Positions 10,589 through 38,515 of a DNA stretch of 64,000 bases are shown here, piece after piece. The DNA comes from Yuukianura sp. NJ FZ-2021 (taxonomy: Eukaryota): the NCBI GenBank assembly GCA_046563655.1, contig CM102284.1, forward strand, positions 6,758,001 to 6,822,000, given 5' to 3'. The position numbers and the translations under genes were made by a program. Each line of letters starts with the position of its first letter. The first letter of the stretch is position 1. The notes under the pieces were generated by a model, which did not search any database, was not told the DNA's origin, and saw nothing but the letters and a program-made list of their open reading frames with translations.

Positions 10589-12177
10589 TTATTTGTGCTT
10601 GGACAAGTTGAGATTCACGTCCTTGGTGTGAAACAGTTCGAACATCAACTCAGGGTACTGCAGCGTAAAGGCTTTGAACCGTTGCGAATCAGCGAGAAGG
10701 CTGTCACGATTACTGTGAAAACAATTAAAAGTTTAGAATTTCAGTTTTAGAAAGTTCAAAATGTCGTGTGTAAGAATAACTTACCTGAGAATCAAATTTT
10801 TGGCCATTTGGACCAAAACTTTTCCGTTGCACTTGGTTCCGACAGTGTACATCTCCGTGGCGTTGTCAATGTTGATCTTGGTAGCCAAATGCCGTTCGCA
10901 CATCAGATGAAGGTCAGTGACCAAGTATTTGTCGGCAGCCCAGAACAAGAGCTTGACTGAATCTTCAAAATCTTCCACTTCTCCGGTGTACATGAATCGT
11001 AGGACTTCCTTGAACAAGTATGGGTCACAATCTGTGATGTTGATGGCACCTTGGTTGTCAGTAATGTCTTGCAGTGAAGAGAGAAACAGATTCGCAAAGT
11101 AACTGCTCCGTGCTGAAATCGACATAAGACGATGGGTCATACTAACTGTAATTGTGAAGATTTTTTTTTGTAGATGTTGAGTTTTACCAGCTAGGACGAG
11201 ACGATGAGCCGGGAACTCCTGGTCTGCACATCTAATGCGAATGTCTGACAGTGTCGGGGACAAAAACAATGGTTTCGTGTCCATGAGGCCTCGATGGGAA
11301 TGAAAAGGCATGAGAAAGTCGTTGTCTGATGATTCGACCAGGAACTTCATCGGTTTATCTGGAATCATCAACAACAAAGTTGAGTAACAGGTTAGATATT
11401 AAACTTACGGAATGATTGATTGGCCACTTACACTCCCGTCGCACGATATCCATAGTAAATCGGAGTTCAGTGACCTTGTCCGTCCATGTACTGGAGTTGT
11501 CATACGTGTCTCCTGCCCACATCCAGTACTTGTAGTTTTGATACTTCCGTATCCCAAATTCATAATCACATTCTTTGGTAGCTGGTCCCATTGACTTGAC
11601 CTCTCGTTCCGAGGGCGAGTAATCCAGTCCATCAGAGGCACTGATGAATCGAACTCGGAAATTGGTCACATTAACTTCCTCGTTTGGTTGAGATGACAGG
11701 CAAACAAAGATAAAAATGTCCAGCACTTGTGGATCCGAGCTACTCGAGGCCATTGGTTGGTACTCGTAGGGGTTGAATGGCTTCGGAGATTCCGCCTTTG
11801 ACAACACATTTGGTTTGGCAAAGTACAATTTCCTGGAATGTATGAATAACAAATTACTTCCTTGTCAAAATACATCAACAAAGACTGTTATTCCAGAAAT
11901 AAACTTACACTGAATGCTGCACATTAAACAGGATTCCAGTTGAGAAACTGATGTCCTGACCTGCGACCTTGAGATTCTGCTTATTCAAGTGGTCAACAAT
12001 CTCACTGCGTGGGGGAACTTTGACGGAGAAAATATACGTATCGTCTTCCTTGGTCCCGCACTAATGAAACAAAAAACACGGTTTCAATTAGACTAAATGT
12101 ATCCTTAAAATTTCAAACGAATCGATTGATGAATTCAGTAACCTTACCTCCAGCCTGAAATGTTTGATCTCAGCCAT
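10589..12177 (-). CDS. SPOP/roadkill-like BTB(-BACK) protein with a divergent N-terminal region
   Basis: Six in-frame GT-AG exons: 12177-12148, 12060-11909, 11832-11432, 11358-11188, 11112-10785, 10712-10589. BTB motifs SDIRIRCADQEFPAHRLVLAARSSYF, ITDCDPYLFKEVLRFMYTG and AADKY...LHLMCE; SPOP-like C-terminus YPELMFELF. Confidence 0.85.
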
Positions 12178-16593: not shown

Positions 16594-19057
16594 ATGGCGT
16601 TAGGAAAAAAGAAACCTGAAAGCGAATCCAGCGACGACGGAATGACGCTGCGCAGTTGCTTGCGTCAAAATTCCTTAACGCTGCTCACCGTCGCTGGTGT
16701 AATCGCTGGCATAATTCTTGGATTTGGCCTTCACGAAGCCAAGGACGAATGGATGCAACGGGAAGTCATTTACGTCAGATTCATCGGCGATCTTTTTCTA
16801 CGCATGCTCAAGGCCCTCATCCTCCCCCTCATAGTTTCTTCGCTCGTTTCCGCCATTGGATCGCTGGACTTAAGTCTCTCTGGCAAAATTGGCACAAGAG
16901 CAATCATTTACTACTTGGTCACGACCGTATGTGCTGTCATACTGGGCATCATACTTGTCATGACGATTCAGCCAGGCAAGGGAGCCGAGGAGAGTGACCT
17001 TGAGAAACAACAAGCCAGAAACATAACTACTCCGGATACGTTGATGGACTTGGTTCGTAATATGTTTCCACCGAATTTGGTTCAAGCAGCACTGGAACAG
17101 TATCAAACAGTTCTCATTTATCCAGGAAACGATTCAATCCGTAAGTCCAATTTGCCTAATTTGCTGAAAAAGTAATTTTCTCAAGAAGTTCGAGCAAATT
17201 GAAAATCGATTTGATCAAATTGGTTTGACCTTTGACCTTTGCTTTAGCCATGGAAGAGTGGAAGATGACCTCGACTCACCAAGAAGGAACGAACATCTTA
17301 GGCCTCGTCGTTTTTGCAACAGTTCTGGGAATTTGTCTTGGAAAAATGCGGGAAAAGGGAAAGCCACTTTTGGACTTTTTCTCGTGCCTCTCAGAAGCTA
17401 TGATGATCGTAACAAATTGGGTGGTTTGGTATGACCTTTAACCTTTAAAATTCTGAAAAAGTGAAAAATTGCGACACTTTCTGTCTTTAGGTTGTCGCCC
17501 GTCGGTGTTTGTTTCCTAATTGCAAGTCAGTTGCTTGAACAAGAAGATTTTGGCAAAGTTTTTCGGAATTTGGGCTACTACTTTGGAACTGTAATGGCGG
17601 GGCTGATCATTCATGGATTCATTGTACTTCCGCTAATTTACACTGTATTTACAAGAACACTTCCGTTTCGATTCATACTAAACATGACACAAGCCATTGC
17701 CACTGCATTTGGAACTGCTTCGAGGTAAGCAACAAATGACGAAGGCGGAAGAAATTTTGAGGTCACAAGGTCAACTGGATTCTGAAAAAAAAATAACAGA
17801 CTTCAATTTTTGTTAGTGCCGCAACATTGCCAATTACAATTCAGTGTTTGGAGGAAAAGAATGGGGTGGATACAAGGGTGGCTCGCTTTGTACTGCCAAT
17901 TGGAGCCACCATTAACATGGATGGAACTGCTCTGTATGTAAGTGCTGCAGAAACCTATCAAAATTTGCGTTGACACAAAAATTTGAAATTTTCGAAACTT
18001 TCTAATTTCTAATTCATGAAAATTTCATTCCCTTTTTGATTTTTCAGGAAGCGGTTGCTGCAATTTTCATTGCTCAGATGGTTGGAAGGTCGTTGGATTT
18101 GGGAAAAATTATTGCCATAAGGTGAACATACTACTAAAATTTTCATGAAACCAGAAAGTGCCAGAGTGTTTAAATGTTGGAACTAGGAAATTCGAAATTT
18201 TTGAAGCCTTTGTAATTTTGAATTTCAACACGGTTTCAAACTTTAGAAAGCTTCCTCTTACATATTTCTCAGTAGTTTCGAGCAGTTAAAATGCAGGAAT
18301 TACTGGTATGTTGTAAATTTAACTTTCGAAACGACAATGCCGGATTGGTCTGCTTCTTTTAAATGTAGAGTTGAAATTTCAAAATTTCAGTAGGGTGTAG
18401 GGTTTCAGTGAGATTTGCGTGACCTTTGTTTGACCTTGTGGTTTTTGTTTGCAGTATCACCAGTACAGCAGCCAGTATTGGAGCAGCGGGGATTCCACAG
18501 GTTCAAAATTACTCATGTTGTTATTGTTGTACTAAGTTTGGATTAGTAATTGAAATTCATCACGGTATGTTTTCCCTGAAGTGACGATGATTCATTGTTC
18601 TTTGTCATCAAACAGGCAGGACTAGTAACAATGGTTATGGTTCTCAACACAATTGGACTTCCAGCAGAATATGTTGCTTACATCATCCCAGTCGACTGGC
18701 TTCTGTAAAATTTTCACTTTTAAATAAATACTTTGCAATGTGTTTACCAATTTTTTCGAACTTAAAGCAATTCTGAATGATGATGATTATCAAAATGCTT
18801 TCTCTTTTTCAGTGACAGATTTCGAACGGCCATCAACGTCCTGGGAGATTCAATTGGTTTGAATAAAATTTCATTAATAAACGAAGTTATTTAAATTATT
18901 TACATAGTAGAGTAAAATTGATGATAAATTGTAATTTTTAGGCGCTGGAATAGTAGACAAGTTGAGCAGTAAAGAACTGGGCAAACTTGCAGCGCGGACG
19001 CCGTCAGAAGAAGCAGAGCTGAATGACTTTGATCACAATTTGCACACAATTTCCTAA
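16594..19057 (+). CDS. Eaat: Excitatory amino acid transporter (SLC1/EAAT family)
   Basis: Nine exons: 16594-17140, 17248-17428, 17491-17724, 17817-17937, 18048-18121, 18455-18500, 18616-18704, 18813-18856, 18942-19057. Motifs [62 protein letters not shown] and [16 protein letters not shown] (Arg of acidic-substrate EAATs). Confidence 0.96.
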
Positions 19058-21690: not shown

Positions 21691-24126
21691 ATGCGGACGC
21701 TTTGTACTACGTGTAAGTTTGAACTTTGTTAGAACGTTTGTAGCAATTTTTTGGAAGTTGATTTTTGGTATAGTGTTTGAAATTCATAATTTTTGTAATT
21801 TTTTTTTCCAGATTTTCGATTTGTGGCTATGTCCACAGTGATCTTCGGTTCGTTACTGTCAAGCTGTATCGGTTCACGGGTAGACCCTACTGTCAATCCT
21901 ACTGCTATTGGAGCTGCTTCAGAAGCAAATGTCCACTTTGCCAGTGACCTGTACTCGGTAATTTTGGAAATAAAAATTTCAAAATTCCAACATTTTCAGT
22001 TTCAGTAGTTAGAGATGATGATTTTTAAGTTGTTCATATTTAAGGCTTACTTCAATCACATCTGCAAAAAATAACAAACTTTCACATATTGGTGTCTTCA
22101 TATTTCTGTTCCAAAATTTTTGTTTAAAAGGCTTTGAGGAAATCTCAACCAGAAAATTTGATCTTTTCTCCGCTGAGTGTGAGCGCAGTCCTTGCCATGC
22201 TGAAAACTGGTGCTCGTGGTGAAACTGAAAGAGAAATTCAAAAGGCTTTGCGCTTTCCACTTGAAGATAACAGACTTAACGAAGGCTGGAAGGGCATTCT
22301 GGAGTCAATGCGGGTAAGACAAAATTTGACATAACATGCCCGAACTTTGCTAAATTTCACTTTCTTAAGGAATACAGAGTAAAGATTGACGCAAAACGGT
22401 TTGCTTTAGTTTCGCCCGAGGTGTCGAAAAAAGTTTTCTGGAACACTTCAAACGAATTTTCTCACCTTCGCTTCTCTTAATGACAAAAATTAACGCCAAT
22501 TTCCTAACAACTTTCACCTTGAAGCCAAATCGGTTTTCTTCCACCATTAAATTTTATGATTCATTTCATTACGAGAGCTTGCTTGAACCAAAAACATAAA
22601 CAACTTACATAATGTTTGCAAAAACAAGTTCAAGTTTGCGTCATTTGTTAACTTTGTTAACTAACCTAAAAAGCATAACTTTTGATTCCAGGGAAAGAAA
22701 AACGTAACCTTGGATATTGCAAACAACGTTTACTCCAGTGCTGGATTTGAATTGAATCCGCAGTATGTCAAAGATCTTGCAAATTATTTTGCGGTCAAAG
22801 TTGAGCAATTGGATTTCACATCAGCACAATCTGCACGAACGATTAATAATTGGGTGGAAGGACTCACGCACAATCGGATCAAGGATTTGATCAGTCCAGG
22901 TAAGACTGATCAAAAATTAATGTTAAACTATGCCTAGGTCACTTTTTAGCTGATTTTTTAGTTAGAGGTCATTGACCTTTTGACCTATTTTGGTTTCTAG
23001 GTGACCTGGATTCGAATACCCGGCTCGTCCTGGTCAATGGAATTTACTTCAAGGGAAAATGGGCTAAGCAATTTGACCCAGAAGAAACAGCTCCAGGCCA
23101 ATTCCATATTTCACCGACGCAAGAAGTGACTGTGGACATGATGCAGATTGTTTCTGATTTTTCTTATGCCGAAGTCCCAGAACTTGATGCCCAAGCAGTT
23201 GGAATTCCATATCAGGCAAATTTCAAATTTTTAGAAAGGAACTTGGTTTTCAAAGAAAGTTTTCAAAAATGTTGATTTTTTTCAAATTTAGGAGAAGAAT
23301 TTCATGATGATCATCCTGCTTCCTCATAAGAAGAACGGACTTGCAGAAATGGAAGCCAAACTTAAGGATTATCCATTGACCCGCCTTCCACCGACGATGG
23401 AAAAAGAGAAAGTCAATTTGCAAATGCCAAAATTCAAGTTAGAGTCTACCATCGACTTGAAGGCTCCATTAAGCGCTGTAAGTTTTTGGCTTTTCGAGCA
23501 AATTGACATCAAATTTTGAAGGGTTTTTGCAATTTTGAAATTTTGAATTCTTCTTACGTTATAGTTAGGTTTGAGCTCCATTTTCTCTGAGGAGAAAGCC
23601 GATTTCACTGGAATTCCACAGAATCCACTTGGGAACAACCTCTACGTTTCCAAAGCCGTTCAGAAGGCATTCATTGAAGTGAATGAAGAAGGAAGCGAAG
23701 CGGCGGCAGCTACAGGTCAGTTTTTTTTTAGTGTTAAAAGATGACCTTCGTCCTTTGTCACATTGTAGAATCGTAGAATTTGGGAGTATAGCTTCAACGC
23801 TTTTCTAAACTTTCCTCTGCTTTCACTAGTTTCTAGCTTTTTGACTAAAATAGGTAATTCGGACTTCTTTTGAGAATTTGCAAGAGGTCAAGGGTTAAGT
23901 TAAGACAAAAAATGAATCTCATGAATGAGAAATTGACGGTTTGTTGAAATTAGGATCTTTGATACGGATGAAGAGATCTCTACCGGAGTTTAAAACAATT
24001 CAATTTGAAGTGAATCACCCATTTGTTAGTCTAATTGTTACGACTGATGACGAACCTACTCTCCTCTTCATGATCTCAGTTACTAAACCGTTAGGATTTG
24101 AAACGTCGCCTAAAGATGAACTCTAG
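21691..24126 (+). CDS. Inhibitory serpin, Spn42Da/Spn4-like; common exons plus terminal exon A (RMKR-S loop, C-terminal KDEL)
   Basis: Exons 21691-21712, 21812-21957, 22131-22313, 22692-22899, 23001-23215 (GC donor), 23292-23477, 23565-23715, 23954-24126. Motifs [36 protein letters not shown], hinge [20 protein letters not shown] at 24168. Confidence 0.93.
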
Positions 24127-24576
24127 TTACCTACAAAAAATCCTCACCTTACTAATTCAAATCTTCAAATAAAATTAAACGTTCAATTTTGTTGGTCAAC
24201 ACTGCTTCTCTAAACATCCGCTTAAATTTTTGTTTCCTTCTACGCACTCTTTTAAATCATAAAAACATAAGTTTGAATTGTAATATAGACCTGTGTTGTG
24301 ATTTGTTTCTTAAATAGTTATAATTATTAATGTGCCAAATACTTAGCTTTCAAAACGAAAATTTGAAATTTTGAAAAACTTGTTCTAAAAATTAGAGCTG
24401 AATCCTACATCGCAACTAATCTAATCCTTGCCTAGCTAAGCTGACAAACTTTGGTGAAGCGTTTTCCTGCGAATTTTTGGAATTTGTCCAGTTGAAATTT
24501 CCCAATTCTAAAAAGTGAATTTCATAAAGTGAAAGTTGCATTTTCTCGATTTACTTTCTCGCGGAACGCTCTTTAG

Positions 24577-24734
24577 AGGAAGCGGTAGCAGCCAGATTTC
24601 TATCAGATTCTGATGGGATTCCAGTGACAATTGACCACCCTTTTCTGTTTTTGGTTGTTTCGAAAACTGATCGACGCAATTCTAAATTTAAAATTAGGCA
24701 AATTCTGTTCATAGGCGTCATTTCATCAAAATGA
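24577..24734 (+). CDS. Serpin alternative terminal (RCL) exon B
   Basis: Phase-1 acceptor ctttag. Reads EEAVAAR-FLSDSDGIPVTIDHPFLFLVV...QILFIGVISSK*. Too short to appear in the ORF track. Confidence 0.8.
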
Positions 24735-24984
24735 ATTTTGTAAAACACCAAACTAAAAAAAACTGAATGAAAGAATCAAAAAGAAAATTACTTTCTCTTT
24801 GAAAAAACGGAAAACGATTTCAAATGAAAGTCGTCAATCAGTCATGAGAAATCGATAACATTTGCTTGACCTTTGGTTGAAATTGGAACTAAAATTGATT
24901 AAACTTGTACAAATTCGGAATGAACTTAATGAAACTAATAGTTTTGGTTTGAATGGGCGTGTCCCTTTGTATCCTTTATTCCAG

Positions 24985-25292
24985 GCGTAATGATTCAGGT
25001 CAAGAGTGCTTTTCCCAGACAACAACCAATTGATTTCATCTGTGACCAACCGTTCATGGCCATCATCTACGATATGAACTACGATCTCCATCTTTTCTGG
25101 ACTTCCGTCAGAAATCCACTGGTTGCAGAAGCTCAATTCAGAAACGAACCACTTACAGATGAAGAACACAAGAATAGTGAAGCAGGAGGCACCAAGGACA
25201 CCAAGGGCAGCGCAATTGCAGGTCAAGGGTCAATGACCTTGACTCTTGTCACCATAGGGTTCCTACACCTCACTTACCGAGCTTTTTACTAA
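24985..25292 (+). CDS. Serpin alternative terminal (RCL) exon C with a 57-aa extension ending in a GPI-like signal
   Basis: Phase-1 acceptor ttccag. Reads GVMIQVK-SAFPRQQPIDFICDQPF...LFWTSVRNP, then a polar linker and KGSAIAGQGSMTLTLVTIGFLHLTYRAFY*. Confidence 0.85.
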
Positions 25293-25517
25293 AATAACGA
25301 TTTTACTAAGCAAAGTCACAGTTTAACTTAAAATTTACGAATTTTTGACTTCTCATTTGGAAAAATTGTTCGTAGTTTTAATTTTTAATTCTCCCGTCCT
25401 TGGGTGTGGTGGGGCACGCACGGCCAAACTCACACTGACAACTTACACTTTTTTAAATTTAAGTTTTTTTGAAATCTTCACTGAATTTTGAAAAACAAAC
25501 AAGATTTTGTTGTGTAG

Positions 25518-25702
25518 TCGCCCGAATCGGTCGACGATTTTTCTTTGTGGAACAACAACCAGAGCCACGCAATGTCCGAGTCGACCATCCCTTTCACCTT
25601 ATGATTCTTGCGTCAACTGGACAAGCATTTGCGTCAGCAGTGACGCAGACGCTGCTCTTTTCAGCATCAGTAGTCCAGCCGACTCCGTCAGCCTCCAGCT
25701 AA
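25518..25702 (+). CDS. Serpin alternative terminal (RCL) exon D
   Basis: Phase-1 acceptor tgtgtag. Reads VARIGRR-FFFVEQQPEPRNVRVDHPFHLMIL...LLFSASVVQP. AATAAA at ~25829. Confidence 0.82.
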
Positions 25703-26038
25703 AATGTGTTACCCACCAACCCCCAAAAGTTTAAAACTCTTCCATTCCATATGTATAGATATGATTTTTAGAAATTTCAGTTTTTCTTTGAAAACCTTGT
25801 CTCAAATTTAGTTCAAACAACTGATAATAATAAAATACTTTTAATTTAAATCTGGAAGCTTTCGGAGTTCCACTTGTTTAATAGCGGTCTTTAGCGTCTG
25901 TAGAGTTGTACTTGCGGGGTTTGATGTCTGTAAAGTCTAAAATGTGATTTGGTTTGTTAAAGCTTATGGGACTTATTTAGTTCAAAAAAATTTCGGTGGT
26001 TTTAATTAACCTCTGCTTGGAAACTTGTGACCTTGTAG

Positions 26039-26220
26039 CGTTTACATTGATGGCGAGGTCAGCTAAGAGACCAACAAAACCAAAACAAATGATCGTTGAT
26101 CATCCGTTTGCGTTTGCAATCTGTGCCAAGCCAGGAAAAACGGAAAACTGGACGCTACTTTTCGTCGGAAAAGTGACAAATCTACCAAAGAAGCATCCAA
26201 AATCTAAGCAAAAGTTCTGA
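26039..26220 (+). CDS. Serpin alternative terminal (RCL) exon E
   Basis: Phase-1 acceptor ttgtag. Reads AFTLMAR-SAKRPTKPKQMIVDHPFAFAI...LLFVGKVTNLPKKHPKSKQKF*. AATAAA at ~26290. Confidence 0.85.
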
Positions 26221-26606: not shown

Positions 26607-27089
26607 TGAATGCTCTTCTCTGGCGGGAAAAGTTTGAATTTTTCAATTTTAAAATTTAAACATTTTTAATTTCAAATTGATTCAAACATCAAACTTCAAA
26701 GCATTTATCTTTACGCAGTTTCTGCAACGATAGTTTTAATTAACTTTTTTAATTAATTAGGTGTAGCGTCGTTTGACAACTGTCTTTGTGATTTTGTACA
26801 ATACATTGTGATTCTGTGAGTGAAATAGCGTCGTGTAGCGGGGATCACTTGAGGTTCAAAATGGGAAAACAACAACTTTGAGAAAACATCTTTTGCGACT
26901 AAGGTTAAGTTAGATTTCAAATCAAAGTTTAAATTAAGTAAGCATGAAACTGTAATGGTAATGATTAATTGTGGCTACTTGTTGACAGTTTCTCAGAAAT
27001 CACGAATTGCAAGCAGTTTTTTAATTGAGGCGCGGAGGACAGTGAACCAAGCAGTCAAATGAAGAGCAAATTGATCGAAGAATAGCAAA

Positions 27090-30000
27090 ATGGAGTTCAC
27101 GTCTGATAATTTGGTGAAGGCTGTACTTGAATTTTACAACCATGCAGAATCACTGAATGTGGAATGTCATGAATGGCTAAAAAGTTGCCAGTCGTCACGA
27201 CAAGCATGGACACTCGTCTGGCCACTGCTCGAGTCATCCCAGGTCATTCACGTTCAATACATGGCAGCCAATATACTGCATTACAAAGTATCAAGACAGC
27301 TGTCGGAACTTCCGGTGGAGGACTATTTGGCATTGAAGGATAATTTGGTGGCTGCAGTGGCTCGATGCATCAATGGTCCGTCAGTTGTTTTGACAAGGTT
27401 GCAGTTGACGGTAAGATTTCTACATGGGAATTCAAATTCGATCTAATAGGAGGCCAGCAGAAGTTCTGCTGCAGAACTTATACTTTTGTTTTTGTTTTGC
27501 AGCTTGGTGTCTTCATTGCAAACACGATTGGTCAGATTTGGCCTAACCCATTAGAAGATCTAGGAGCTGTGTTTCAACCCCACAATTTCCCTGGAGTTCC
27601 AGAAGAAGCAGTTACCAAACTCCTAATTCAAGTCTTCGGTTATGTTCCTGAACAAGCGCAATCGGTCTGGCAACATTCTTCCAGAAAAAGTGAAGCGCAT
27701 CGCGAGTTACAGAGTAAAGGAGAGTCAAGTAAGTTTCTGACATCATCGTGTTGTAATATCTGGTATTTAGAGTGACTAAGATTTGATTCAGCGTACGTTT
27801 ATTTTATATCAACAGTGTTCAACTGGCTATTTACTATCGTAAAATCACAACAGAACGTTGAATTGATAAAAGAAGCGCTGCGAGCCATGACCCTCTGGAT
27901 GAAAATGCTGAGTATCTGCGAGTGGCATGACATGTCGAATCTTCTGGACATTCTAGTCAGTCTTTGCAAAGACTCCATACGTTTGGGAGACTTTACATTA
28001 TGCGATCTTTGTCTTGAGATGCTCAGTGGGATTATCTGTGATCCAAACACGCATCACTTTCCTACGGTCATTCTTCTCATATTGGACAAAATCGTCCAAC
28101 TGGAGCCTACTCTGGAGGTCATTTTAGAACTTCATGATATGGTAGCTTTCTAAAACAATTATCATCATTGCCTACTAGTATTGAATAGTGATTCACAAAG
28201 TTTACTTTTATAAACAAACAGGAGATGGCCGGATCCTTCTACGGTATGTACGTCGCATTGGCTGAATGTCACTCCAGACTCGTTGTCGAAGTTTGTGACG
28301 AGGAGTGCAGTCATAACAAGGCCAACCCGAAGAATCGTGCGAATATGCTCAAGTTGGTTGATATTCTTCTTCGCTGTGCTGCCACTCCTGGAGCCTATCC
28401 AATTGACGAAACAGTTAGCAGCATTACGATCTCAGTCTGGTATTCGTTTGTGGTAAGTCATTAATAATTCTAAGTAACTTATTATAATTTTCAGTTTTCT
28501 CTAATGTTAAATTCTGTTTGTAGGAGGAAATACAACCAAAGCAATCGGAAGGACTCAAGTACGCAAGGTTGATGCAAGTATTTGAATGGGTTTATAAGTC
28601 TCTTGGAGAAATATTGGTAAAGAAGGCTCGGTTTCCTTTGAGTGACTCGGACTGGAACGCTGAAGAGAAAGAACAGTTTCGCATTTACCGACAAGACGTT
28701 TGTGATTGCCTTACTTACTGCTTCGAACTTCGCGGATGGACAATGCTCAATGAAATGATCGACGCCGCTGAGCAACAATTGAGTGTTATCAAGGTAGTGA
28801 TTTGCAGACTCTTAATTAAGATGAACATCGTCTGAACTGTTTTGTATTTTGTCGTTTAGAATCCAGAAATGCTGACCACTTTGTGGCCAGAACTCGAAAG
28901 CCTTCTCATGGGAATACGTGCCGTCACTGAAAACATATCAAATGACACAGATCCACTGCTGATAGAACCAATGACTCGGGCGTTCAACGTTGTCATCAAG
29001 ATTCTCAAACTGAATCAAGTCTTTCGTATGCCTAAAGTTTACCAAGCAGCTGCTGAATGCATAAGTACGAGCGAAGTACTCAAATTGCAAAATACAACAA
29101 ACTTGTCTTAATTTTGTTCTGTTTTTCTTCAGGTTCATGCAGCGGGATGCTGCATTTGTTTGAAAATGCTGTAAGGAACTTGATTGGTTTCATACTCGAA
29201 GGTCTCTTCATTCCAGAATCGTCATCTTCAGCAACTCTGACACTCAAATCTCTCAGTCGCGATTGTACGAAACTCTTGGCTGGATTTACCCCACAAATTC
29301 TTTCGTCTTGTAAAGTAAGTTTAACACCAATTTCAAAAATCTGACCGAAGTTTTGCTAATTGGTTTCCTTTGTAATGTAATTCAGCAAGCATTGGACAGT
29401 GGTGTGATGTCACAAAACGATTCGATAAGACTGGTATTCTGTATTGGAAAATTCTTGCCTTATTTACCACATGAACAAATCATCACCGCTGTCAACGAAA
29501 TCTTTTCTCCAAGTTTGCTGAACCTTCATGGAATAGCGGGCGAAGAGGTGAGAATTCAATAAGTCGCGTCAATTGTTAGAGTTTACATAACTCCATTTTT
29601 ACAGCCACGAGTGGAAACGAGACATCAATTGATCGTGATTTTGCGCATTATGAGCACTCTCTGCTCATCACTGGACGTGGATGACCGTGATTCGGAAGAG
29701 GAAGAGGACATGTCTGCTTCAGAATCAGCTGTTCCCGGAGACAACAACAATTATTCTAGTCAAAACAGAGTTGAATCACCGGGCCCTTCTGGTTCCAGTG
29801 CCAGGACGTCTGGATCCAGAATTGTGGAAGAAGTGAATCCAAATGTGAAACCGAGGAAACTCCGTGACCTCTCTAGTCAACCTTTGATTCCAGTAGTAGA
29901 ACAGATTCTGCCTGTTCTTGTTCCGCTTGCGGAGAAGTGGTCCAGAGATGAAGAAGTTATGGAAACACTGTTTTCGATTTTGAAGCATACACTCAGCACG

Positions 30001-31625
30001 ATCCACGCTTCGAGTCAAATTGTCATTGACTTTGCCGTGAAGCTGGTCATAATTTCGTACCGACTTCATCCGGTTCCTCCTGCAACAGCGCTTGCGAAGC
30101 AGGTCAGACACTGAAAACTTTCACACTTGCTGAATTCTGTATTTGATTGATTTTGTTGAAGACACTGGGTTTTTGTATTGCAGATTCTACTGATGCTCGG
30201 CGGAGAAAATTTTCATTCACAATGTCAATTTTTGAAAGAAATTCACATGCTCTGTGCCGATACTCTGAAGAATCCTAGAGAGAATTTGGATTTTACGGAG
30301 TCTTACTTCTCCTTTATTGGTCATCTCATACGTAAACAGCCAGAAATTGTGAATGGATCTTCAATTGATATCGAACCCATGCTAACCATGTGTAAGTTAA
30401 TACACTTTCACTTGATTTTTAAACCAATGCTGTAGTTTGCTTGTTCTTGCAGCTATCAACCTTTTGAACTACTCGGAAGCACCGCTGCTGAAGGCAGGAA
30501 TCTACTTTGTACAAGTGACGCTGGAAAAAGCTGGATCTCTTACTCCACCACTGGTGGATTTTTACCGAAGTCGTGGACAGTTGCTGCTGCACACGATTAT
30601 TTTAGGAATTGGTAATGCAATTGTCCGTCTCGAACGATTATAAGCGTTAAAAATTAATTGAATTCATATTGTTGTTTGAATGAATTACAGGCTGCTCTGT
30701 TCCACGATCAGCGGTTCACCATTTTTCGGAAATCTTTATTTTTCTAAACAAGACTTTTACGGGAGAGTGGAGAAAGTGGTTACAGGATGCATTGTCTCCG
30801 CCTGGATTTCCGTCGCCACATTGCTCGGCTGATGCGAAGAACAAATTTTTCATGAAACTTGCAAAGTAAGTTGCCGTACTAAAAAAAAAATTGGTGATCG
30901 TCAGAATTTTTCAGAGTTTTAAAGTTAACGTGAACTCTTCTCTTGGTCGAAGTAAACTTGGGTTCCGCGCCTGTCCCCACCCGTTCAAATTTTCGCGCTG
31001 CCTCATTGTCCCCACCCAGTGTCCCCACCGGATGGATACATTTGTCCCCACTTGGTGGGGACAAATGTGTACCCACCAGCCGTACACCAAGTCCCCCTAG
31101 CGGCTGAAGTGGAACTAGCGAATTTGAGCTGGCAACGTTGTAGCATTGCTCCATTGTACCCACCCAGGGCAGATGTAATCAACTTAGCTAAACTCAATAA
31201 GTCAAACCTACAGACGTAATCAATATTGCGTGCTTTACCAAACCTAACGCCGCGCCTTCGGCGCGGGAAAATATAACAGGATTTACCAAATCAAAAAGGA
31301 AAAAACGTTGCCAGCTTGAATTCAGATGTTATTATATTGCCGCTAGGTGGACGTACTGCTTTTGGTCGTGGTGGGGACAAATGTATCCATCCGGTGGGGA
31401 CACTGGGTGGGTACAATGGAGGCAGCGGGAAAATTTGAACGGGTGGGGACAGGCGCGGAACCCAAGTTTAGTTCAACCCTTCTCTTAGTAACAACATTTT
31501 AAATGTCGCTTTCTAGGGACCGAGCAACGAAAAGGACGATAGCAGATGCAATTACAGATTTTGCGTTGGCTTGTCGCAACATGTCTGGAAGTGAATATGC
31601 TTCAGCTACATCGAAGCGATTGTAG
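27090..31625 (+). CDS. IPO13: Importin-13 (karyopherin-beta family; cadmus-like)
   Basis: Multi-exon HEAT-repeat protein. N-terminal IBN_N-like domain (WLKSCQSSRQAW...QYMAANILHYKV), PGAYPIDETVS, EKEQFRIYRQD, and C-terminal DFALACRNMSGSEYA resembling the IPO13 end. Last exon 31517-31625. Confidence 0.88.
30945..31478. mobile_element. MITE with ~105-bp imperfect TIRs and an 8-bp TSD, in the last intron of importin-13
   Basis: Left ggtcgaagtaaacttgggttccgcgcctgtccccacccg... is the near reverse complement of right ...cgggtggggacaggcgcggaacccaagtttagttcaacc. Identical flanks cttctctt at 30937-30944 and 31479-31486. Confidence 0.92.
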
Positions 31626-32240
31626 AAGAAAGATGAAATCTCAGCGTCATTCCTTCGTCGACTGTCCAGTGGACTTCAAATAGCCTTGGTTCCTTTTAAT
31701 TTTTAATTTAGCATTTTCAAATTCTACTTATGAGTACATATTAGCAGTAGTTTTAACGTTGACCATAATTAGCCCGAGTGTTTTTGGAACTTTGTTTGAT
31801 GATTTTAAATATGGTAGATTTAGATCATTTAATTGAGTAACTTTTAATTCCATGATTTTTAATCCTTGTCCATTTCTGCTTTCAGTAAAGCCAGTCTTCA
31901 AAGATGGAATATCTCCTTTCTCCTATGTGTTTAGCGAAGATGTTTTGACATTTGCAATGCTGAGAATGATCTGAACCGATTTAAGTTCAAATCAGGGTTC
32001 TTCCGGGTGCTTATGATTTCAGTTTCAACAAAAACAAGCTTCCAGATGCTAAACAGTTTAGTCTTAATTTCATTTTACTACTCAAGGCTAATTTTTCAGG
32101 ATATAAAGTTACGGAAAATTTGGCTAGTTGGGAGAAGTTAGCAGTTTAGGCAAAAATTGCTACTTGCAATTTCTAACGAATTAATTAACCAACTTAATTA
32201 AAATTTCAGCAGAACAAATCGGTTGGTGGTTGTGAACAAG

Positions 32241-33342
32241 ATGGACATTTTGAAGATTTTGGTGTGCGTATTGATGGGGGCTTTAACAGGTAATGAAGAT
32301 ATGAAACGTTGAATTTTGAATCATTCCGAAGCATAAATTGCGAATAGTAATTGCGAAGCATTTTTTCAAAATATTTCTAAAATTTTTAGACTTTTGAAAT
32401 TGATTTTGTTTGTGCTGATATTTGCAGTGACTTCTGAAGCAGTAGCAGGAGATGCAGACAGAGAAGGGACAATGGACCAGAGAACTAGGCTCCATCGTGA
32501 ACTGTTGGACAATTATGACAGCAAAGTATATCCGGATAAACCAAATGTCACCTTTGGTGTCAGCCTCATCAACCTAGACATCGTATGTAAAACTTTTATG
32601 TACTTGATTTTCATTTTCAAAATATTTTGAACATTTTGAAAAGATTATAAAAATTGTCAATCTTTTGCAGAACGAATTGAGAAGTACGCTTGAGACGAAC
32701 GTTTGGATCAAAATGGTACGAAACTTCTTTGATTAGTTGACGAAGTGCAGAACAGTTGAAACGTTTTAACTGGAATGTTTAACTTTTAACTTTAGGTTTG
32801 GTACGACAGTCGCCTCATGTGGGACACTATGGAATTTCCAGTATCGCTTCTGCGCATGGACTACAATACAATATGGCATCCTGATATAACGCTTTACAAC
32901 TCCGCTGACGCCTCCATGTCCATTGGCGGCACTGCTTGTTGGAAGTCCAATGTCCTTGTGTATCCTTCTGGAAAAGTGCTGTGGGTTCCACCATGTCACT
33001 TTAGTTCATTCTGCATGCAGACCGCTTCGCAATACGATTTGCAAACCTGTTTTCTTAAATTCGGTTCGTGGACGATGGATTCGGAAATTATGGACCTTAA
33101 TTTGTACCAAAACGTGAGCAACTCGTAACAAATTCTTTCTGTTTCCAGTAATTCAATTGTGTTTTTAGGTAACGACAATTGACATGTCCGACTTTTGGGA
33201 TTTGTCCAATTGGAAAGTGGTGTCAACGGAGGCAGTCAAAAACGTCAAATTCTACGAGTGTTGTCCAGAACCCTATGCTGACCTGACGTTCAAGGTGAAC
33301 TTCAAGCGGAAACCACCAAAGGACCTTGTTTGCTCTGTTTAA
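32241..33342 (+). CDS. Soluble nicotinic-receptor ectodomain protein (AChBP-like) 1, ~246 aa
   Basis: Exons 32241-32289, 32428-32582, 32671-32715, 32796-33113, 33169-33342. Signal peptide; NVW (loop D), WHPDITLYN (loop A), Cys-loop, KFGSWT (loop B), YECCPEPY (loop C). Stop follows RKPPKDLVCSV with no TM region. Confidence 0.88.
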
Positions 33343-33836
33343 AATTGAAAACTGCAAGCATTTTAGATGATTTGAGGACAATAGTTAGTGAAAGTCATCT
33401 TGATTGAAGTTTTGCGTCAACAGGCTTGTTTATCACTTTTCAGCAGTAGCAATCGGATGATCCATGAAAAACAGATTTTGCTAAATTAAGCTTTTCCTTC
33501 ACTTTGTTATATACTTGCGTGACAAAAGACTCCGAATTGCATAATCTTTTGAGCATGTTTTTGTCTGTCATTACGCTGAGAATGACGACAATACGAACAT
33601 ATTGGTCATTACAATGGCCTGTTTTTCTCTAAGAAAGCAATTAACTTTTATTTTGGAATTGTAAGAACCTCACATCTGTCCTTGCTGGATTAAACTTGAC
33701 GTCTTTGGAGGTCATACTAATTCTAGAGCACAGATTTTTTAACGGTTCCTATAAATACGAAGGTTTGACATTTTATTTGCACAAGACTTGGAAAATTTAA
33801 AATCTTGAATCACAGAAACTAAAGTTGCGGTGTATA

Positions 33837-34932
33837 ATGAAATCGGCGTTGGTTTTCGTTTTGGTCGTGGCAATTGGTGAGTAGTACTTACTTTTTCTGC
33901 TCATTTTCAAAATTTCTGAAAATTATGACATGTTATGAATTTCAGCATACTTTGCTGCTGGCGATGACACGGTCATCAGTACGAGTAAAAGTCAAACGCA
34001 AGGAATTTCGAAACAAGGAGATGCAAAACTTCGAACGAGTCTTTTTCGCTCGTTGATGGAAAATTACGAAAGTGGAATCAATCCGGATGAAGCCAGTGTC
34101 AAGTTTGGTGTTAGCCTCCTAAGTGTTGCCATTGTAAGTCAAAATTTTCAAAATCACGGGTCCAATTCAAAATTATCTTGCAAAATTCTTCAGTCTGTCG
34201 AAATTTTTACAATTTCAATTTTTCAGAATGAAGATGAGTCAACAATGGAATCTAACGTGTGGCTCCGATTTGTAAGTTTAGTTTATTTCAAATCAAAAAT
34301 CGTTTCCTAAATTTTGAAAATCAAGTGTCGCCTCATAATTGTTTGTCAATTTCCTTTTCATTTTTAGTCTTGGCACGACGCTCGCTTGGCTTGGGATACG
34401 AACGTTTTTCCAATTGACGTAATACGCATCGAGGCTTCTAACCTTTGGCGTCCTGACATAAGGTTGTTCAATGCTGCTGACACTTTCTCTACCTCCACTT
34501 CCTGTTCTGAAACTAACACAGTCGTGAAATCAAACGGAGATGTCATTTGGATTCCACCGTGTCACCTCAGTTCCATCTGCAAAACGACGCTCAAGTTGCA
34601 CCCCTTTGAGCAGCAGACGTGTCCACTCAAATTCGGATCTTGGACCTACGACAGCGCCATCATGGACGTCGACTTTTTTGGCAACGTTAGTAACAACTTA
34701 ATGCAATATTTGAATCCTCAACATGAAAAATCGGTTTTAACATTTTGTGTATGTTGATTTGCAGGAAACTACGATTGACGTGACTGAATTCCAAGACCTT
34801 ACAGACTGGAAACTACTGTCTACTCAAGGCGTCAAGAATATCAAGGTTTATCCGTGCTGTCCAGAACCCTACGGTGACCTGACCTTCAACGTGACGCTTC
34901 AGCGTAAACCCGAGGGAGATCGCTGCAACTAA
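33837..34932 (+). CDS. Soluble nicotinic-receptor ectodomain protein (AChBP-like) 2, ~252 aa
   Basis: Exons 33837-33876, 33946-34133, 34227-34271, 34368-34685, 34765-34932, with the same intron positions as copy 1. SNVWLR, WRPDIRLFN, C-13x-C loop, KFGSWTYD, YPCCPEPY. Stop after RKPEGDRCN. TATAAATA at ~33749. Confidence 0.88.
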
Positions 34933-35782
34933 ATTGCAGCTATTTTAACTTTTTGCTTTGGCAATTCTGAAATATTCGAAACGGTGAACCAAAATTACTA
35001 GCAAAATAGTTTTTTCTTTTCAAAAATTTGAAAAGGATATCAGAAATTAAATATAATCATAAAACACACGAATAGAAAACAAAATTTTAGAATGTTCTCA
35101 TAAGCTTATTCATGAAATTCTAACTGCAAGTACTCTGCTGAGGTCATCTCATCATGTGCATCCCGTCAAGGTTAGATTTAAAAAAGATTCCTTGGGGGTC
35201 ACAAAACAAAGATGAGGGAAAGTGTATTAACGTTTTTTGAGCAATTTTTGAAAATTGGTTGAAAATGAGATTAACTCGGGGAAAATTAAGTCCCGAGAGA
35301 CAAAAGAGAGGGATGAAGAAAGCTTCTTCTTCCTACACAAGAAATTTGCTGGAGAAAATTTTTATGCACGATGCATTACTTGTTCTCTGAGCTGGTTTTT
35401 AAAATCAAGGAGACACTTTGCCTATGTTCCTTAAGCGATTTGAGGTTGTGGCTGGAGGGTAAGGAAGTTAAGGTTTGTGGAAACGGAGAAATTATGCAAG
35501 ATGATTCTTCTGGCTGGATTGGCTGGAGATGTTCTGGAAGGAGACGCTTTTCCAGTAATTCCTGAGGGGCTGATGATGATAAATGACTTACTTTGGTCTA
35601 CCGAATCTACTCATCCATCCGAAACAGGATAAATTTGGACTGAAGATTTTTCAGCGTCGATGACCTTGGTGACCTCTTGTTATGAAAATAAGGGCGTGGT
35701 AGTTTTGGATGACTTTTGTACTAAATCAAGTGAAGTTAAGTTAGTGGAACGTTTAACTTTCAAAATTAACTGCAAAACCTAA

Positions 35783-36120
35783 GAAAAACTAAAAAACAAA
35801 TATTTTGCTACAATTAGACGCCAGACAAAAAATAATTATTTTCCTCTGAGGTAAAGAAAATGGGAATGCCGTAATGTAGGAATGCGAGATAAGACAAGTG
35901 ACGTCACAAAGTAAACGTGACGTCACAAAAAAAATTGAAAAAAGGCGAGAACCTTTTTGTTTCGCATAATATCCGCATAGCATCCGACCAAAATCGAGGG
36001 TTCACTTTTACTAGGATAACAGTCTGCACGACATGGAAAAATCAACACAAATCACACTGTGATTTTTTACCAAACGACACTCACTGTTTACCAATACCGA
36101 AATAATTTTTTATTTACACG
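35783..36120 (+). repeat. Dispersed repeat family, copy 4
   Basis: gggaatgc...gtgacgtcac twice, ccgaccaaaatcgagggt, cagtctgcacgac, cactcactg. Confidence 0.85.
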
Positions 36121-36609
36121 GATTCACTAATCCATCCATATAAAGAGAAAATTTATGCATTAGGGTACCCATTTTAGTTAGGAGTTAAAAAAATCAAGTT
36201 CGTTCCAAAATTATTAATTATAAAACCAAAATAAAATGCTGTTCTTTTGATTTCACACGCTTCGAAACTGTAAAATCGTTTTTTCGTAAAATCCTTAGGA
36301 CTTGAAAACAACTGTCAAAGAAGTTACCTTCAACTGAGCAATTGGAACAACACCCTATTAAAATTCAGCCTTGTTCTAGAAAGCTTAAAAATAAATTTCA
36401 ACTCTAGAAGCTTATGTCGATTCGTAGTGAAAAATATGTAAAAATTAAAATTTACTAAAACCTTTGAACAAAATGCAGTAGATAATCGAGTTAATAAAAT
36501 ACTCATTATATTGCAATTGTCTGTGACAGTCGAAAGGCTTTTTCTAGAATTTTTTTGACATAACACAACCATAATATGTTTTTAAGAATAAATACTTATT
36601 CTAGCCTAC

Positions 36610-37384: not shown

Positions 37385-38515
37385 ATGACTCTTTTTCAAA
37401 ATTTTGTCGTCTGTATTCTATTCTTCATGTTTGGTCAAAACATACGCGAAACTAATGCTTACGAGGTAATACAAACTATTAATTTCCTAATCACCATTAA
37501 AAACTAACTTACTTAAAAAAACTTTTTTTTTTATTCGAGCAGAAATGTTCTACCACAGATGACTGTGAGCACGTTCTTACAGAAAAGGATGTGGAGAACC
37601 CTGCGATAAATGGGTTTTGTATGCAAAAGATAGTTCCAGGGACGTGTATCATTGCTTACTCTTATGTAAAATGTCACTAACAGTATTTATAATCTTGTCA
37701 ATTTTTGAATGTTTTCTCTGAAATTGCACATGTATGACTAAACTTAGGTTCCAGGTTTTGGTTATGACGAAAAACCAAAGGACCCCGTGGCTGATGGATG
37801 CACTAAGTTAAACTCGACGTGGGTCAAGACATGTGAAAAAGCCGTTAAAGAACTTCGACAGGACTATCCAGCTTTTGCTGAAAAAATTGCCAATGCCTAC
37901 GCGTGTAAAGATACCACGAAGGGCGATGTGGTCTATCTGACCTGCTCCTCACAAGCAACTAACAACAAAGAACGCCCAACTAAGGTTTGATTAAAAATTG
38001 TACGTTAAAAAATGACCAGTTTAAAAAAATCGTTATTATTTTTAGTCAAAGTCGGGTTGTGCTAAACCACAAGACTGTGAAGCAGTTTTGAGCGAACCTG
38101 ATAAAATGAACCATGGAATTTTTAAAGGTTGTTTCAATTCTGAGGAAGGCTGTACGGCTCCCAAAAGTTGTGACCACTCTTGTGGTTTCGTCTACTCGAA
38201 GGTTGGTAGTACTTCTAACAATTTCCGATTTGAAATGAAATATTTAATAATTTCAACAAATTTTGGTGCGTTCAGGTCGGCAAAGCAAATGAAGCTGCTC
38301 GAAACCCAAATCCTGCCAACTGCAAGGCTCCACCAGCTTCTCAACAGGCAATGGTTGACAAAATTTGCGACAATTTTTTAGCATCAGAACTGAATCAGAA
38401 ACTTTCGCCTAATACAAAGAATACCTTGTTCAGTCCAAAGGGATTTATTTGTAACAAATACATTGCTTGTGTAGCACAAATGGAACCAAAAGCAGGAAAA
38501 AAACAAAAGGGATAA
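37385..38515 (+). CDS. Secreted cysteine-rich protein (~278 aa) with two tandem copies of an unrecognised Cys domain
   Basis: Five exons, all phase 0: 37385-37465 (signal peptide), 37543-37665, 37748-37984, 38046-38201, 38276-38515. AATAAA at 38534. Confidence 0.78.

Follow-up and report, generated by a model that had tools for sequence, protein, structure and literature searches.

Can a nicotinic acetylcholine receptor (nAChR) ligand-binding domain (LBD) without an ion channel be a finished gene product in a hexapod, or must such a gene be an incomplete or broken copy of a receptor? The question is raised by two neighbouring plus-strand genes in a stretch of 64,000 nucleotides (nt) from Yuukianura sp. 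NJ FZ-2021 (contig CM102284.1, positions 6,758,001 to 6,822,000 of the forward strand), hereafter the window, whose own numbering is used throughout. The two genes, here called g1 (32241-33342) and g2 (33837-34932), have five exons each, and an earlier reading of the DNA, the original prediction, took them for a pair of secreted receptor ectodomains resembling the acetylcholine-binding proteins (AChBPs), which are known from molluscs and the annelid Capitella. Our analysis makes it likely that g1 and g2 are intact genes produced by an old tandem duplication and belong to a hexapod family of secreted, channel-less nAChR alpha-type LBDs, which derives from a true alpha-like subunit and is apparently separate from the LBD-only proteins of molluscs and copepods. 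The family is AChBP-like in architecture and is set apart from the molluscan AChBP lineage.

Gene models were read from positions 31500-36500 and then spliced by coordinates. In g1, exon 1 (32241-32289) contains the start codon and the signal peptide, beginning with an ATG and a hydrophobic N-terminus and closing on a GT donor, and exon 2 (32428-32582), which has AG/GT borders in phase 1 and can be aligned with the relatives described below, encodes the end of the signal peptide, the N-terminal helix and beta1. Exon 3 (32671-32715) is a micro-exon in phase 0 that carries the loop D Trp, identified by its column in the site comparison below; exon 4 (32796-33113) encodes loop A, an extra Cys pair, an 11-residue Cys-loop and loop B; and exon 5 (33169-33342) encodes the vicinal Cys-Cys of loop C, the pre-M1 RKP motif and an 8-residue tail with a Cys, followed by a TAA stop. 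The same order of elements is found in g2, in which exon 1 (33837-33876) contains the start codon and signal peptide, exon 2 (33946-34133; phase 1, GT..AG borders) the end of the signal peptide, the N-terminal helix and beta1, exon 3 (34227-34271) the loop D Trp, exon 4 (34368-34685) loop A, the extra Cys pair, a 13-residue Cys-loop and loop B, and exon 5 (34765-34932) the loop C Cys-Cys, the RKP motif, a 6-residue tail with a Cys and a TAA stop. All eight introns are of the GT..AG type and 55-138 nt long, their phases are 1,0,0,0 in both genes, and exons 3 (45 nt) and 4 (318 nt) have equal sizes in the two copies. The predicted products of 246 aa (g1) and 252 aa (g2) are 48% identical over 239 aligned residues. 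The stop codon of g1 and the start codon of g2 are separated by 494 nt, and no direct DNA repeat of at least 25 nt links the two genes within 30500-36500, so that the duplication appears old at the DNA level. In these respects the spliced models, with their equal phases and hydrophobic N-termini, agree with the original prediction of a tandem five-exon pair with matching introns and signal peptides.

We then scanned the exons one by one against Pfam, omitting exon 3, which at 15 aa falls under the 20-residue minimum. PF02931 (Neur_chan_LBD) matched exon 4 with E-values of 1.3e-22 (g1) and 1.7e-28 (g2) and exon 5 with 2.5e-07 in g1 (30.8 bits) and 3.1e-05 in g2 (23.9 bits, which taken alone is just below the 26-bit cut-off), and in both genes the exon 5 match reached profile position 216 of 216. 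Neither exon-2 piece matched a Pfam family, and no family besides PF02931, the channel family PF02932 included, was found on any scanned piece of g1 or g2. Both N-termini are hydrophobic and signal-like, whereas the stop codons follow the RKP motif after only 8 residues (g1) and 6 residues (g2), leaving short, hydrophilic C-terminal tails and no hydrophobic segment past the LBD. Each gene therefore encodes a signal peptide and an LBD with a soluble C-terminus, and lacks the four transmembrane (TM) helices of a channel-forming nAChR alpha subunit, as predicted from the letters of the DNA: a complete LBD that ends shortly after RKP, matched by Neur_chan_LBD without Neur_chan_memb. A glycosylphosphatidylinositol (GPI) anchor or lipid tail was considered for both products and ruled out on the basis of the 6-8 hydrophilic tail residues, and neither C-terminus ends in an endoplasmic reticulum (ER)-retention motif.

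The claim that no TM exons lie downstream was upheld over the whole window. As tblastn queries we used the 151 related proteins described below, 89 of which are channel-bearing (75 with one LBD and 14 multi-domain models). This search yielded 1195 high-scoring segment pairs (HSPs), 683 of them on the plus strand at 32100-35000 and 512 elsewhere. The top HSP outside the locus (E 0.006) involves an N-terminal piece of the LBD on the minus strand at 8600-8728. No channel exons were detected in the window by this search, the best HSP outside the locus from a post-LBD part of a query having an E-value of 0.062, which is at chance level given the 151 queries used. Within the locus, four HSPs use query residues past the first LBD, and the two significant post-LBD-query HSPs (P0027, E 6e-05 and 1.3e-04) fall on exon 5 of g2 and of g1, not on extra exons. 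Furthermore, the open reading frames (ORFs) 3' of g2 at 37748-37990 and 38046-38381 have no Pfam family and no significant tblastn match to the nAChR queries.

If the short form is a product in its own right, it should have relatives that end in the same way. A word-indexed search with g2 exon 4 as query identified one relative among 39 candidates, the 239-aa protein P0001 from a 999-nt contig, which is 69% identical to g2 exon 4 and 64% identical to the whole of g2, and which ends at the same place as g1 and g2, with a terminal Cys. A scan with P0001 identified L001, a 1186-nt metagenome contig without introns that holds an uninterrupted 244-aa ORF at 46-780. This ORF shares 55% identity with g2, runs collinear with both genes over all four exon junctions, and ends 9 residues past the pre-M1 motif, again with a Cys; beyond its stop lie about 400 nt of AT-rich sequence in which no ORF reaches 60 aa. 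Because g1 and g2 carry four introns each and L001 carries none, L001 is most simply a transcript. The contigs of other short relatives are of similar size (916-1182 nt in all ten looked up, and 901-1585 nt in eight of ten in a second look-up), and these intronless contigs of about 1 kb with untranslated regions (UTRs) are likewise most simply read as transcripts.

An exhaustive protein search with P0001 returned 7386 representatives at E <=1e-3, 106 of them at <=1e-30. We classified 154 rows, made up of 151 proteins together with g1, g2 and the L001 ORF, as 75 channel-bearing, 40 fragments, 23 complete LBD-only (g1, g2, the L001 ORF and P0001 among them), 14 multi-LBD gene models and 2 other. 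The multi-LBD relatives (14 of the 151 representatives: P0003, P0005, P0006, P0010 and 10 others) are 575-1181 aa long with 2-4 LBD matches each, and are probably tandem receptor or LBD-only genes fused by gene callers. A profile, A1, built from 13 LBD-only members and used to score 8000 candidates, gave 43 proteins with E <=1e-20. The best 17 of these matches (E 6.8e-101 to 9.7e-63) contain PF02931 alone, whereas the best channel-bearing match has an E-value of 3.1e-51. Four of the best 17 are RefSeq proteins of Folsomia candida (P0159, P0160, P0161 and P0166; 241-250 aa), named 'acetylcholine receptor subunit alpha-like 1', 'beta-like 1' (two) and 'alpha-type acr-16', and three of the four are encoded on one 4.88-Mb contig. 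In addition, the ESM Atlas contains LBD-only clusters in which the most frequent phylum is Arthropoda (one cluster; 261 aa, 145 members) or Mollusca (two clusters).

The residues kept and changed in the short proteins were examined by comparing the 75 channel-bearing rows with 33 LBD-only rows. The pocket residues are present in most rows of both classes: the loop D Trp in 73/75 channel-bearing and 31/33 LBD-only rows, the loop A Tyr or Phe in 69/75 and 33/33, the loop B Trp in 74/75 and 32/33, the first loop C Tyr in 72/75 and 32/33, each of the vicinal loop C cysteines in 72/75 and 32/33, and the second loop C Tyr in 59/75 (with Phe in 14 more) and 31/33. The Asp of the FPFD-type Cys-loop motif, on the other hand, is found in 73/75 channel-bearing rows and in only 5/33 LBD-only rows (Gly in 13, Glu in 7, Lys in 3), and an extra Cys pair is found in 0/75 and in 21 to 22 of 33, respectively. 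Both genes possess the loop D Trp, the loop B Trp and the loop C Tyr-x-Cys-Cys...Tyr, with Tyr (g1) or Phe (g2) in loop A, and hence the vicinal Cys-Cys and aromatic box of an alpha-type subunit. In Cys-loop receptors the Cys-loop Asp couples the ectodomain to the channel. With 13 residues between the Cys-loop cysteines, g2 has Glu in this column; with 11, g1 has an Asp in a shortened loop from which the motif has gone, so that neither gene retains the FPFD-type Asp of a channel-forming alpha subunit.

Both extra cysteines are present in g1, g2, L001, P0001 and all four Folsomia proteins. In the AlphaFold2 (AF2) model of P0001 they are residues 126 and 145, and DSSP assigns a hairpin of strands 130-133 and 138-141, with 125-126 also paired to 144-146. 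The residue numbers add up to the same value (126+145 = 130+141 = 133+138), which puts the extra cysteines opposite one another on a single antiparallel ladder, and on this model the pair is likely to form a third disulfide. The mature chain has seven cysteines, the odd one lying in the short C-terminal tail, where a Cys is seen in g1, g2, L001, P0001, P0002, P0004, the Folsomia proteins and others. By analogy with a molluscan AChBP discussed below, this residue may link chains or rings covalently, at the face that touches the membrane in receptors. Where exon 5 begins, g1, g2, P0001, P0002 and L001 share an N-x-T site.

At the level of sequence, the closest solved chain to P0001 is the human alpha2 ectodomain (1.5e-39), followed by alpha4, alpha6 and alpha7 (1e-34 to 1e-36), while chains of the Lymnaea-type and Aplysia-type AChBPs match with E-values of about 1e-22. 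A Foldseek search with the AF2 model (pLDDT 84.3, pTM 0.77) placed human alpha4, alpha7 and Torpedo alpha chains at the top of the PDB matches (E about 1e-19), with query-normalised TM-scores of 0.75-0.80, a root-mean-square deviation of about 2 A and 30-34% identity. The beta-sandwich fold of a receptor ectodomain is thus found in the model of this relative of g2.

We then asked where the short proteins fall among receptor subunits. A first, quick IQ-TREE tree (the PMSF mixture approximation; 101 rows, excluding all 14 multi-domain rows and all but one of the 40 fragments) united g1, g2, L001, P0001 and P0002 in a clade with an SH-aLRT support of 98, nested in a 14-row group (support 87) that is LBD-only throughout save for the fragment P0002. 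A second quick PMSF tree contained 79 rows, namely 36 LBD-only rows (the 23 above and 13 from the profile search), 40 of the 75 channel-bearing rows (P0055 counted among them), P0002, and the two 'other' rows P0023 and P0111. Here a clade of 26 rows was recovered with an SH-aLRT support of 99, comprising 24 complete LBD-only rows, the fragment P0002 and P0055, with a common end point and no channel-bearing receptor. P0055 (283 aa) lacks the short Cys tail and ends instead in about 20 hydrophobic residues; it may represent a form of the family that is tethered to the membrane or carries a GPI anchor. A full IQ-TREE search on the same columns (LG+G4, 1000 ultrafast bootstrap (UFBoot) and 1000 SH-aLRT replicates) again recovered the 26-row clade (SH-aLRT/UFBoot 98/95), together with g1 + g2 + L001 + P0001 + P0002 (98.9/100), the same group without g1 (98.3/100) and a 9-row sub-clade that holds the four Folsomia proteins (100/100). 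Because g1 branches before g2 and its three relatives, the g1/g2 duplication predates the divergence of those relatives.

All named members of the 26-row clade come from one springtail, Folsomia candida, and g1 and g2 share with this hexapod LBD-only group the third Cys pair, the tail Cys and their placement. Other LBD-only rows fall outside it, including those from Haliotis (P0145), the bivalve Potamilus (P0187), the copepod Neocalanus (P0089) and several others. On the starred branches of the second tree, which is unrooted, at least four changes of the LBD-only label are forced, and the channel-less state therefore either arose more than once or was reversed, the family of g1 and g2 being one ancient and coherent case. 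A single clade with the mollusc LBD-only proteins was not recovered, as judged from two rows, Haliotis and Potamilus, with the crystallised AChBP sequences outside the tree. The phylogeny proposed with the original prediction has thus been carried out in part: with nAChR subunits and two mollusc rows included it puts g1 and g2 in an LBD-only clade apart from the molluscs, while the spider and crystallised AChBPs stand outside the trees. The suggestion that two paralogues stopping at the same point do not reflect random truncation is supported by the common end point of the 26-row clade, from the transcript-like stops of the relatives and from a conserved pocket combined with a relaxed gating residue.

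For the pairs g1/g2, g2/L001 and g1/L001 we counted differences by the Nei-Gojobori method over 217-227 codons, excluding the signal peptide. The proportion of silent differences (pS) is 0.757-0.798 and that of replacement differences (pN) 0.271-0.352; as pS is saturated, we give no dN/dS ratio. There are no stops or frameshifts in g1, g2 or L001, and all splice sites of g1 and g2 are intact. Replacement change is far below silent change, neither copy has drifted as a pseudogene, and long-term purifying selection has acted on both.

These results bear on two explanations in which g1 and g2 are not genes for finished proteins. They could be the 5' halves of ordinary receptor genes, with TM exons that were overlooked or are located outside the window: the search reached 29 kb 3' of g2, and g2 contains a possible donor, cagc|gtaaac, at 34900-34909 with its GT at 34904, which the original prediction had singled out as a point from which transcripts might splice on. 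This donor has no GT counterpart in g1 or in L001 and no TM exon is reached from it. Moreover, both genes have in-frame stops, g1 would need to be spliced across g2, which starts 494 nt past the g1 stop, the stop of L001 is followed by a 3' UTR, and no TM-like HSP in the window has an E-value below 0.06, so that we regard this explanation as extremely improbable. Equally little probability attaches to decaying pseudogene fragments left by a receptor duplication. The shortened Cys-loop of g1, without an FPFD-type motif, is what such decay might look like, but the frames are open across five exons with intact splice sites, pN is 0.27-0.35 against a saturated pS, and the architecture is constant over the 26-row clade.

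Two further explanations accept the proteins as finished and differ in what they do. It is unlikely, though conceivable, that they form secreted rings for a ligand other than acetylcholine, for instance a different amine, a metabolite of microbes or plants, or, as in molluscan ACCBP, a mineral phase, with the nicotinic pocket re-used. Among molluscan relatives, CaCO3 binding and picomolar affinity for algal toxins are reported as divergent functions (PMC3423370), and g1 and g2 themselves differ next to the pocket, with Tyr versus Phe in loop A and Met versus Tyr after the loop B Trp. Nevertheless, the five-residue aromatic box and vicinal Cys-Cys are retained in 31 to 33 of the 33 LBD-only rows, as would be expected of a pocket that binds a quaternary or protonated amine through cation-pi contacts. 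Alternatively, instead of acting as secreted decoys, the products could remain in the secretory pathway and join full-length nAChR subunits, regulating receptor assembly in a dominant-negative or chaperone-like manner. Truncated nAChR isoforms have such effects in other animals, and the family keeps both the principal-face and the complementary-face residues of real alpha subunits, with 30-34% identity to alpha4, alpha7 and alpha1 chains in the structure-based alignment. Both C-termini lack an ER-retention motif, however, and the family's own third Cys pair, its lost Cys-loop Asp and its long persistence as separate genes fit a free-standing soluble protein better, and we consider co-assembly quite improbable.

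How, then, does the family compare with soluble nicotinic proteins already described? With the AChBPs of the molluscs Lymnaea, Aplysia, Bulinus and Biomphalaria it shares a signal peptide and single LBD without a channel, the aromatic box, the vicinal Cys-Cys of loop C and a relaxed Cys-loop. A cysteine that cross-links subunits has a precedent in Cys71 of Biomphalaria BgAChBP2 (PMC3423370), an odd cysteine reported there to give disulfide-linked subunit dimers and probably double pentamers. The differences are that the g1/g2 family is nearer to nAChR alpha ectodomains (1.5e-39 to 1e-34) than to AChBP chains (about 1e-22), that the Haliotis and Potamilus rows lie outside the 26-row clade, in a tree without the crystallised AChBPs, and that in the family the Cys-loop measures 13 residues and the chain ends in a Cys-bearing tail; the C16-C64 pair of BgAChBP1, moreover, sits elsewhere than the third cysteine pair described here.

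Among arthropods, an LBD-only transcript with start and stop codons is in print for the spider Cupiennius salei (CsAChBP, 246 aa; PMC4569296), and a second spider protein, Pp-AChBP of Pardosa pseudoannulata, has been proposed as a soluble mimic of insect nAChRs (Bao et al. 2017 as cited in PMC10934791). The spider proteins resemble g1 and g2 in being arthropod, LBD-only and of similar length (PMC4569296); compared by description, with the sequences outside our trees, CsAChBP differs in its reported 16-residue Cys-loop (PMC4569296), against 13 residues in g2 and 11 in g1. The four Folsomia proteins have the architecture of g1 and g2, with a signal peptide, PF02931 as the sole domain, an end of the RKPE type and a Cys after it, the extra Cys pair, membership of the 26-row clade and, for three of the four, a clustered arrangement like that of g1 and g2; they are, however, only 34-40% identical to g1 and g2, form a separate sub-clade and carry the database names of receptor subunits. 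The divergent nAChR alphas of insects (for example Locusta migratoria alpha9 and Schistocerca alpha-L1-like; the P0140 cluster) also have an alpha-type LBD with vicinal Cys-Cys and fell, unsupported, in the same half of the first tree as g1 and g2, but M1-M4 are present, the Cys-loop Asp is kept and the grouping was lost in the second tree. We found no paper on LBD-only nicotinic proteins in springtails or other hexapods in a search that did not extend to subscription journals and supplementary files. The family therefore is apparently undescribed in print, yet it is already in RefSeq for Folsomia candida under receptor-subunit names. The novelty of the pair was overrated in the original prediction, since AChBPs are in print for two spiders and homologues of the family already stand in RefSeq.

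Candidate signals around the two genes were identified by a pattern scan, as consensus matches only and all on the plus strand. A TATAAA hexamer, a candidate TATA box, lies at 32102-32107, 139 nt 5' of the g1 ATG, and another at 33750-33755, 87 nt 5' of the g2 ATG; ATTAAA hexamers, candidate poly(A) signals, lie at 33689-33694, 347 nt 3' of the g1 stop, and at 35046-35051, 114 nt 3' of the g2 stop. In the gap 3' of g2, at 35899-35926, there are two copies, 8 nt apart, of a palindrome resembling a cAMP response element (CRE), GTGACGTCAC. Further on, the plus strand has several cysteine-rich ORFs (37501-38381), which bear no relation to receptor channel exons and may specify a small secreted protein.

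On the other side, g1 is adjoined upstream by an importin-13/transportin-3-like gene on the plus strand (27075-30900; IBN_N E 7.8e-06, TPR_TNPO3_IPO13_4th E 9.9e-06). Between this gene and g1 lies an element of about 535 nt (30945-31478) that resembles a miniature inverted-repeat transposable element (MITE), with terminal inverted repeats of about 108 nt whose two adjacent arm pairs are 95% and 98% complementary. Still further upstream, five stop-to-stop ORFs follow one another on the plus strand (23929-24126, 24528-24734, 24942-25292, 25463-25702 and 25981-26220), each with a serpin C-terminal motif of the 'HPF/QPF' type; of the two that were scanned, 24942-25292 resembles the end of the Pfam Serpin profile weakly, at a sub-threshold E of 0.0069, and 25463-25702 has no match. 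This row (23929-26220) looks like a cassette of alternative reactive-centre-loop exons, such as are known in insect serpin genes. The window also contains a BTB/POZ-domain gene on the minus strand (10781-11864; E 1.4e-20), whose upstream ORF has no Pfam match, and, on the plus strand at 16594-17175, the first large exon of an EAAT (SLC1) gene, which is 72% identical to Allacma fusca, 64% to Folsomia candida, 59-63% to Orchesella dallaii and 55-69% to insects and crustaceans. With a springtail, Allacma fusca, as its closest named match, this exon accords with the arthropod-like genome predicted at the outset. Together with the springtail origin of the named members of the 26-row clade, it places the window, by similarity, most likely in a hexapod and probably in a springtail.

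Given the preferred reading of g1 and g2 as secreted, channel-less alpha-type LBDs, the proteins would be secreted and N-glycosylated and would assemble into rings as AChBPs do, through receptor-type principal and complementary faces. Acetylcholine or other nicotinic ligands would be bound at the subunit interfaces, in the aromatic box under loop C, with the extra Cys pair acting as a third disulfide that staples a beta hairpin and the odd C-terminal Cys possibly joining chains or rings covalently. Without a channel to gate, such proteins could only sequester ligand, which is the established mechanism of molluscan AChBP, and their role would be that of an extracellular buffer or decoy for acetylcholine or nicotinic toxins.

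Several points weigh against this reading. The transcript-like origin of the relatives' contigs of about 1 kb is judged from their length and their lack of introns. FastTree has the 26-row split, but with a local support of only 0.27. In addition to its 11-residue Cys-loop, g1 has Met in place of an aromatic residue two positions past the loop B Trp, and its pocket may therefore differ from that of g2. Finally, it has been argued for the spider protein that control of acetylcholine levels is unlikely to require an AChBP in the presence of acetylcholinesterases (PMC4569296), an argument that weakens a simple synaptic-buffer reading. Molluscan AChBPs are described as binding algal toxins at picomolar affinity (PMC3423370). 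In soil hexapods, toxin scavenging seems at least as plausible as synaptic buffering.

We also put forward, as a speculation that we think rather improbable, a wider form of the decoy idea, in which springtails and their relatives would possess an expanded and independently evolved set of soluble nicotinic decoys, stabilised by a third disulfide and joined by the C-terminal Cys into, for example, tail-to-tail double rings, that would serve as a haemolymph sink for the nicotinic toxins of soil microbes, fungi and plants and for insecticides of the neonicotinoid and spinosyn type. If this were true, the family would set the insecticide and toxin sensitivity of standard soil test animals and, being derived from a hexapod alpha subunit, would offer the closest soluble stand-in yet for the binding sites of insect nAChRs.

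Snail AChBPs serve as structural stand-ins for nicotinic receptors, and a spider AChBP has been put forward as a closer mimic of the insect ones (Bao et al. 2017 as cited in PMC10934791). With an intact pocket and 30-34% identity to real alpha ectodomains, a hexapod family would be a closer surrogate still, easily expressed, for work on insecticide binding and selectivity. For annotation, the naming of RefSeq members as receptor subunits means that counts of nAChR genes are inflated. For the biology of these animals, a conserved and duplicated candidate decoy raises the question of whether acetylcholine is buffered outside synapses or whether the family affords protection from natural and synthetic nicotinic toxins.

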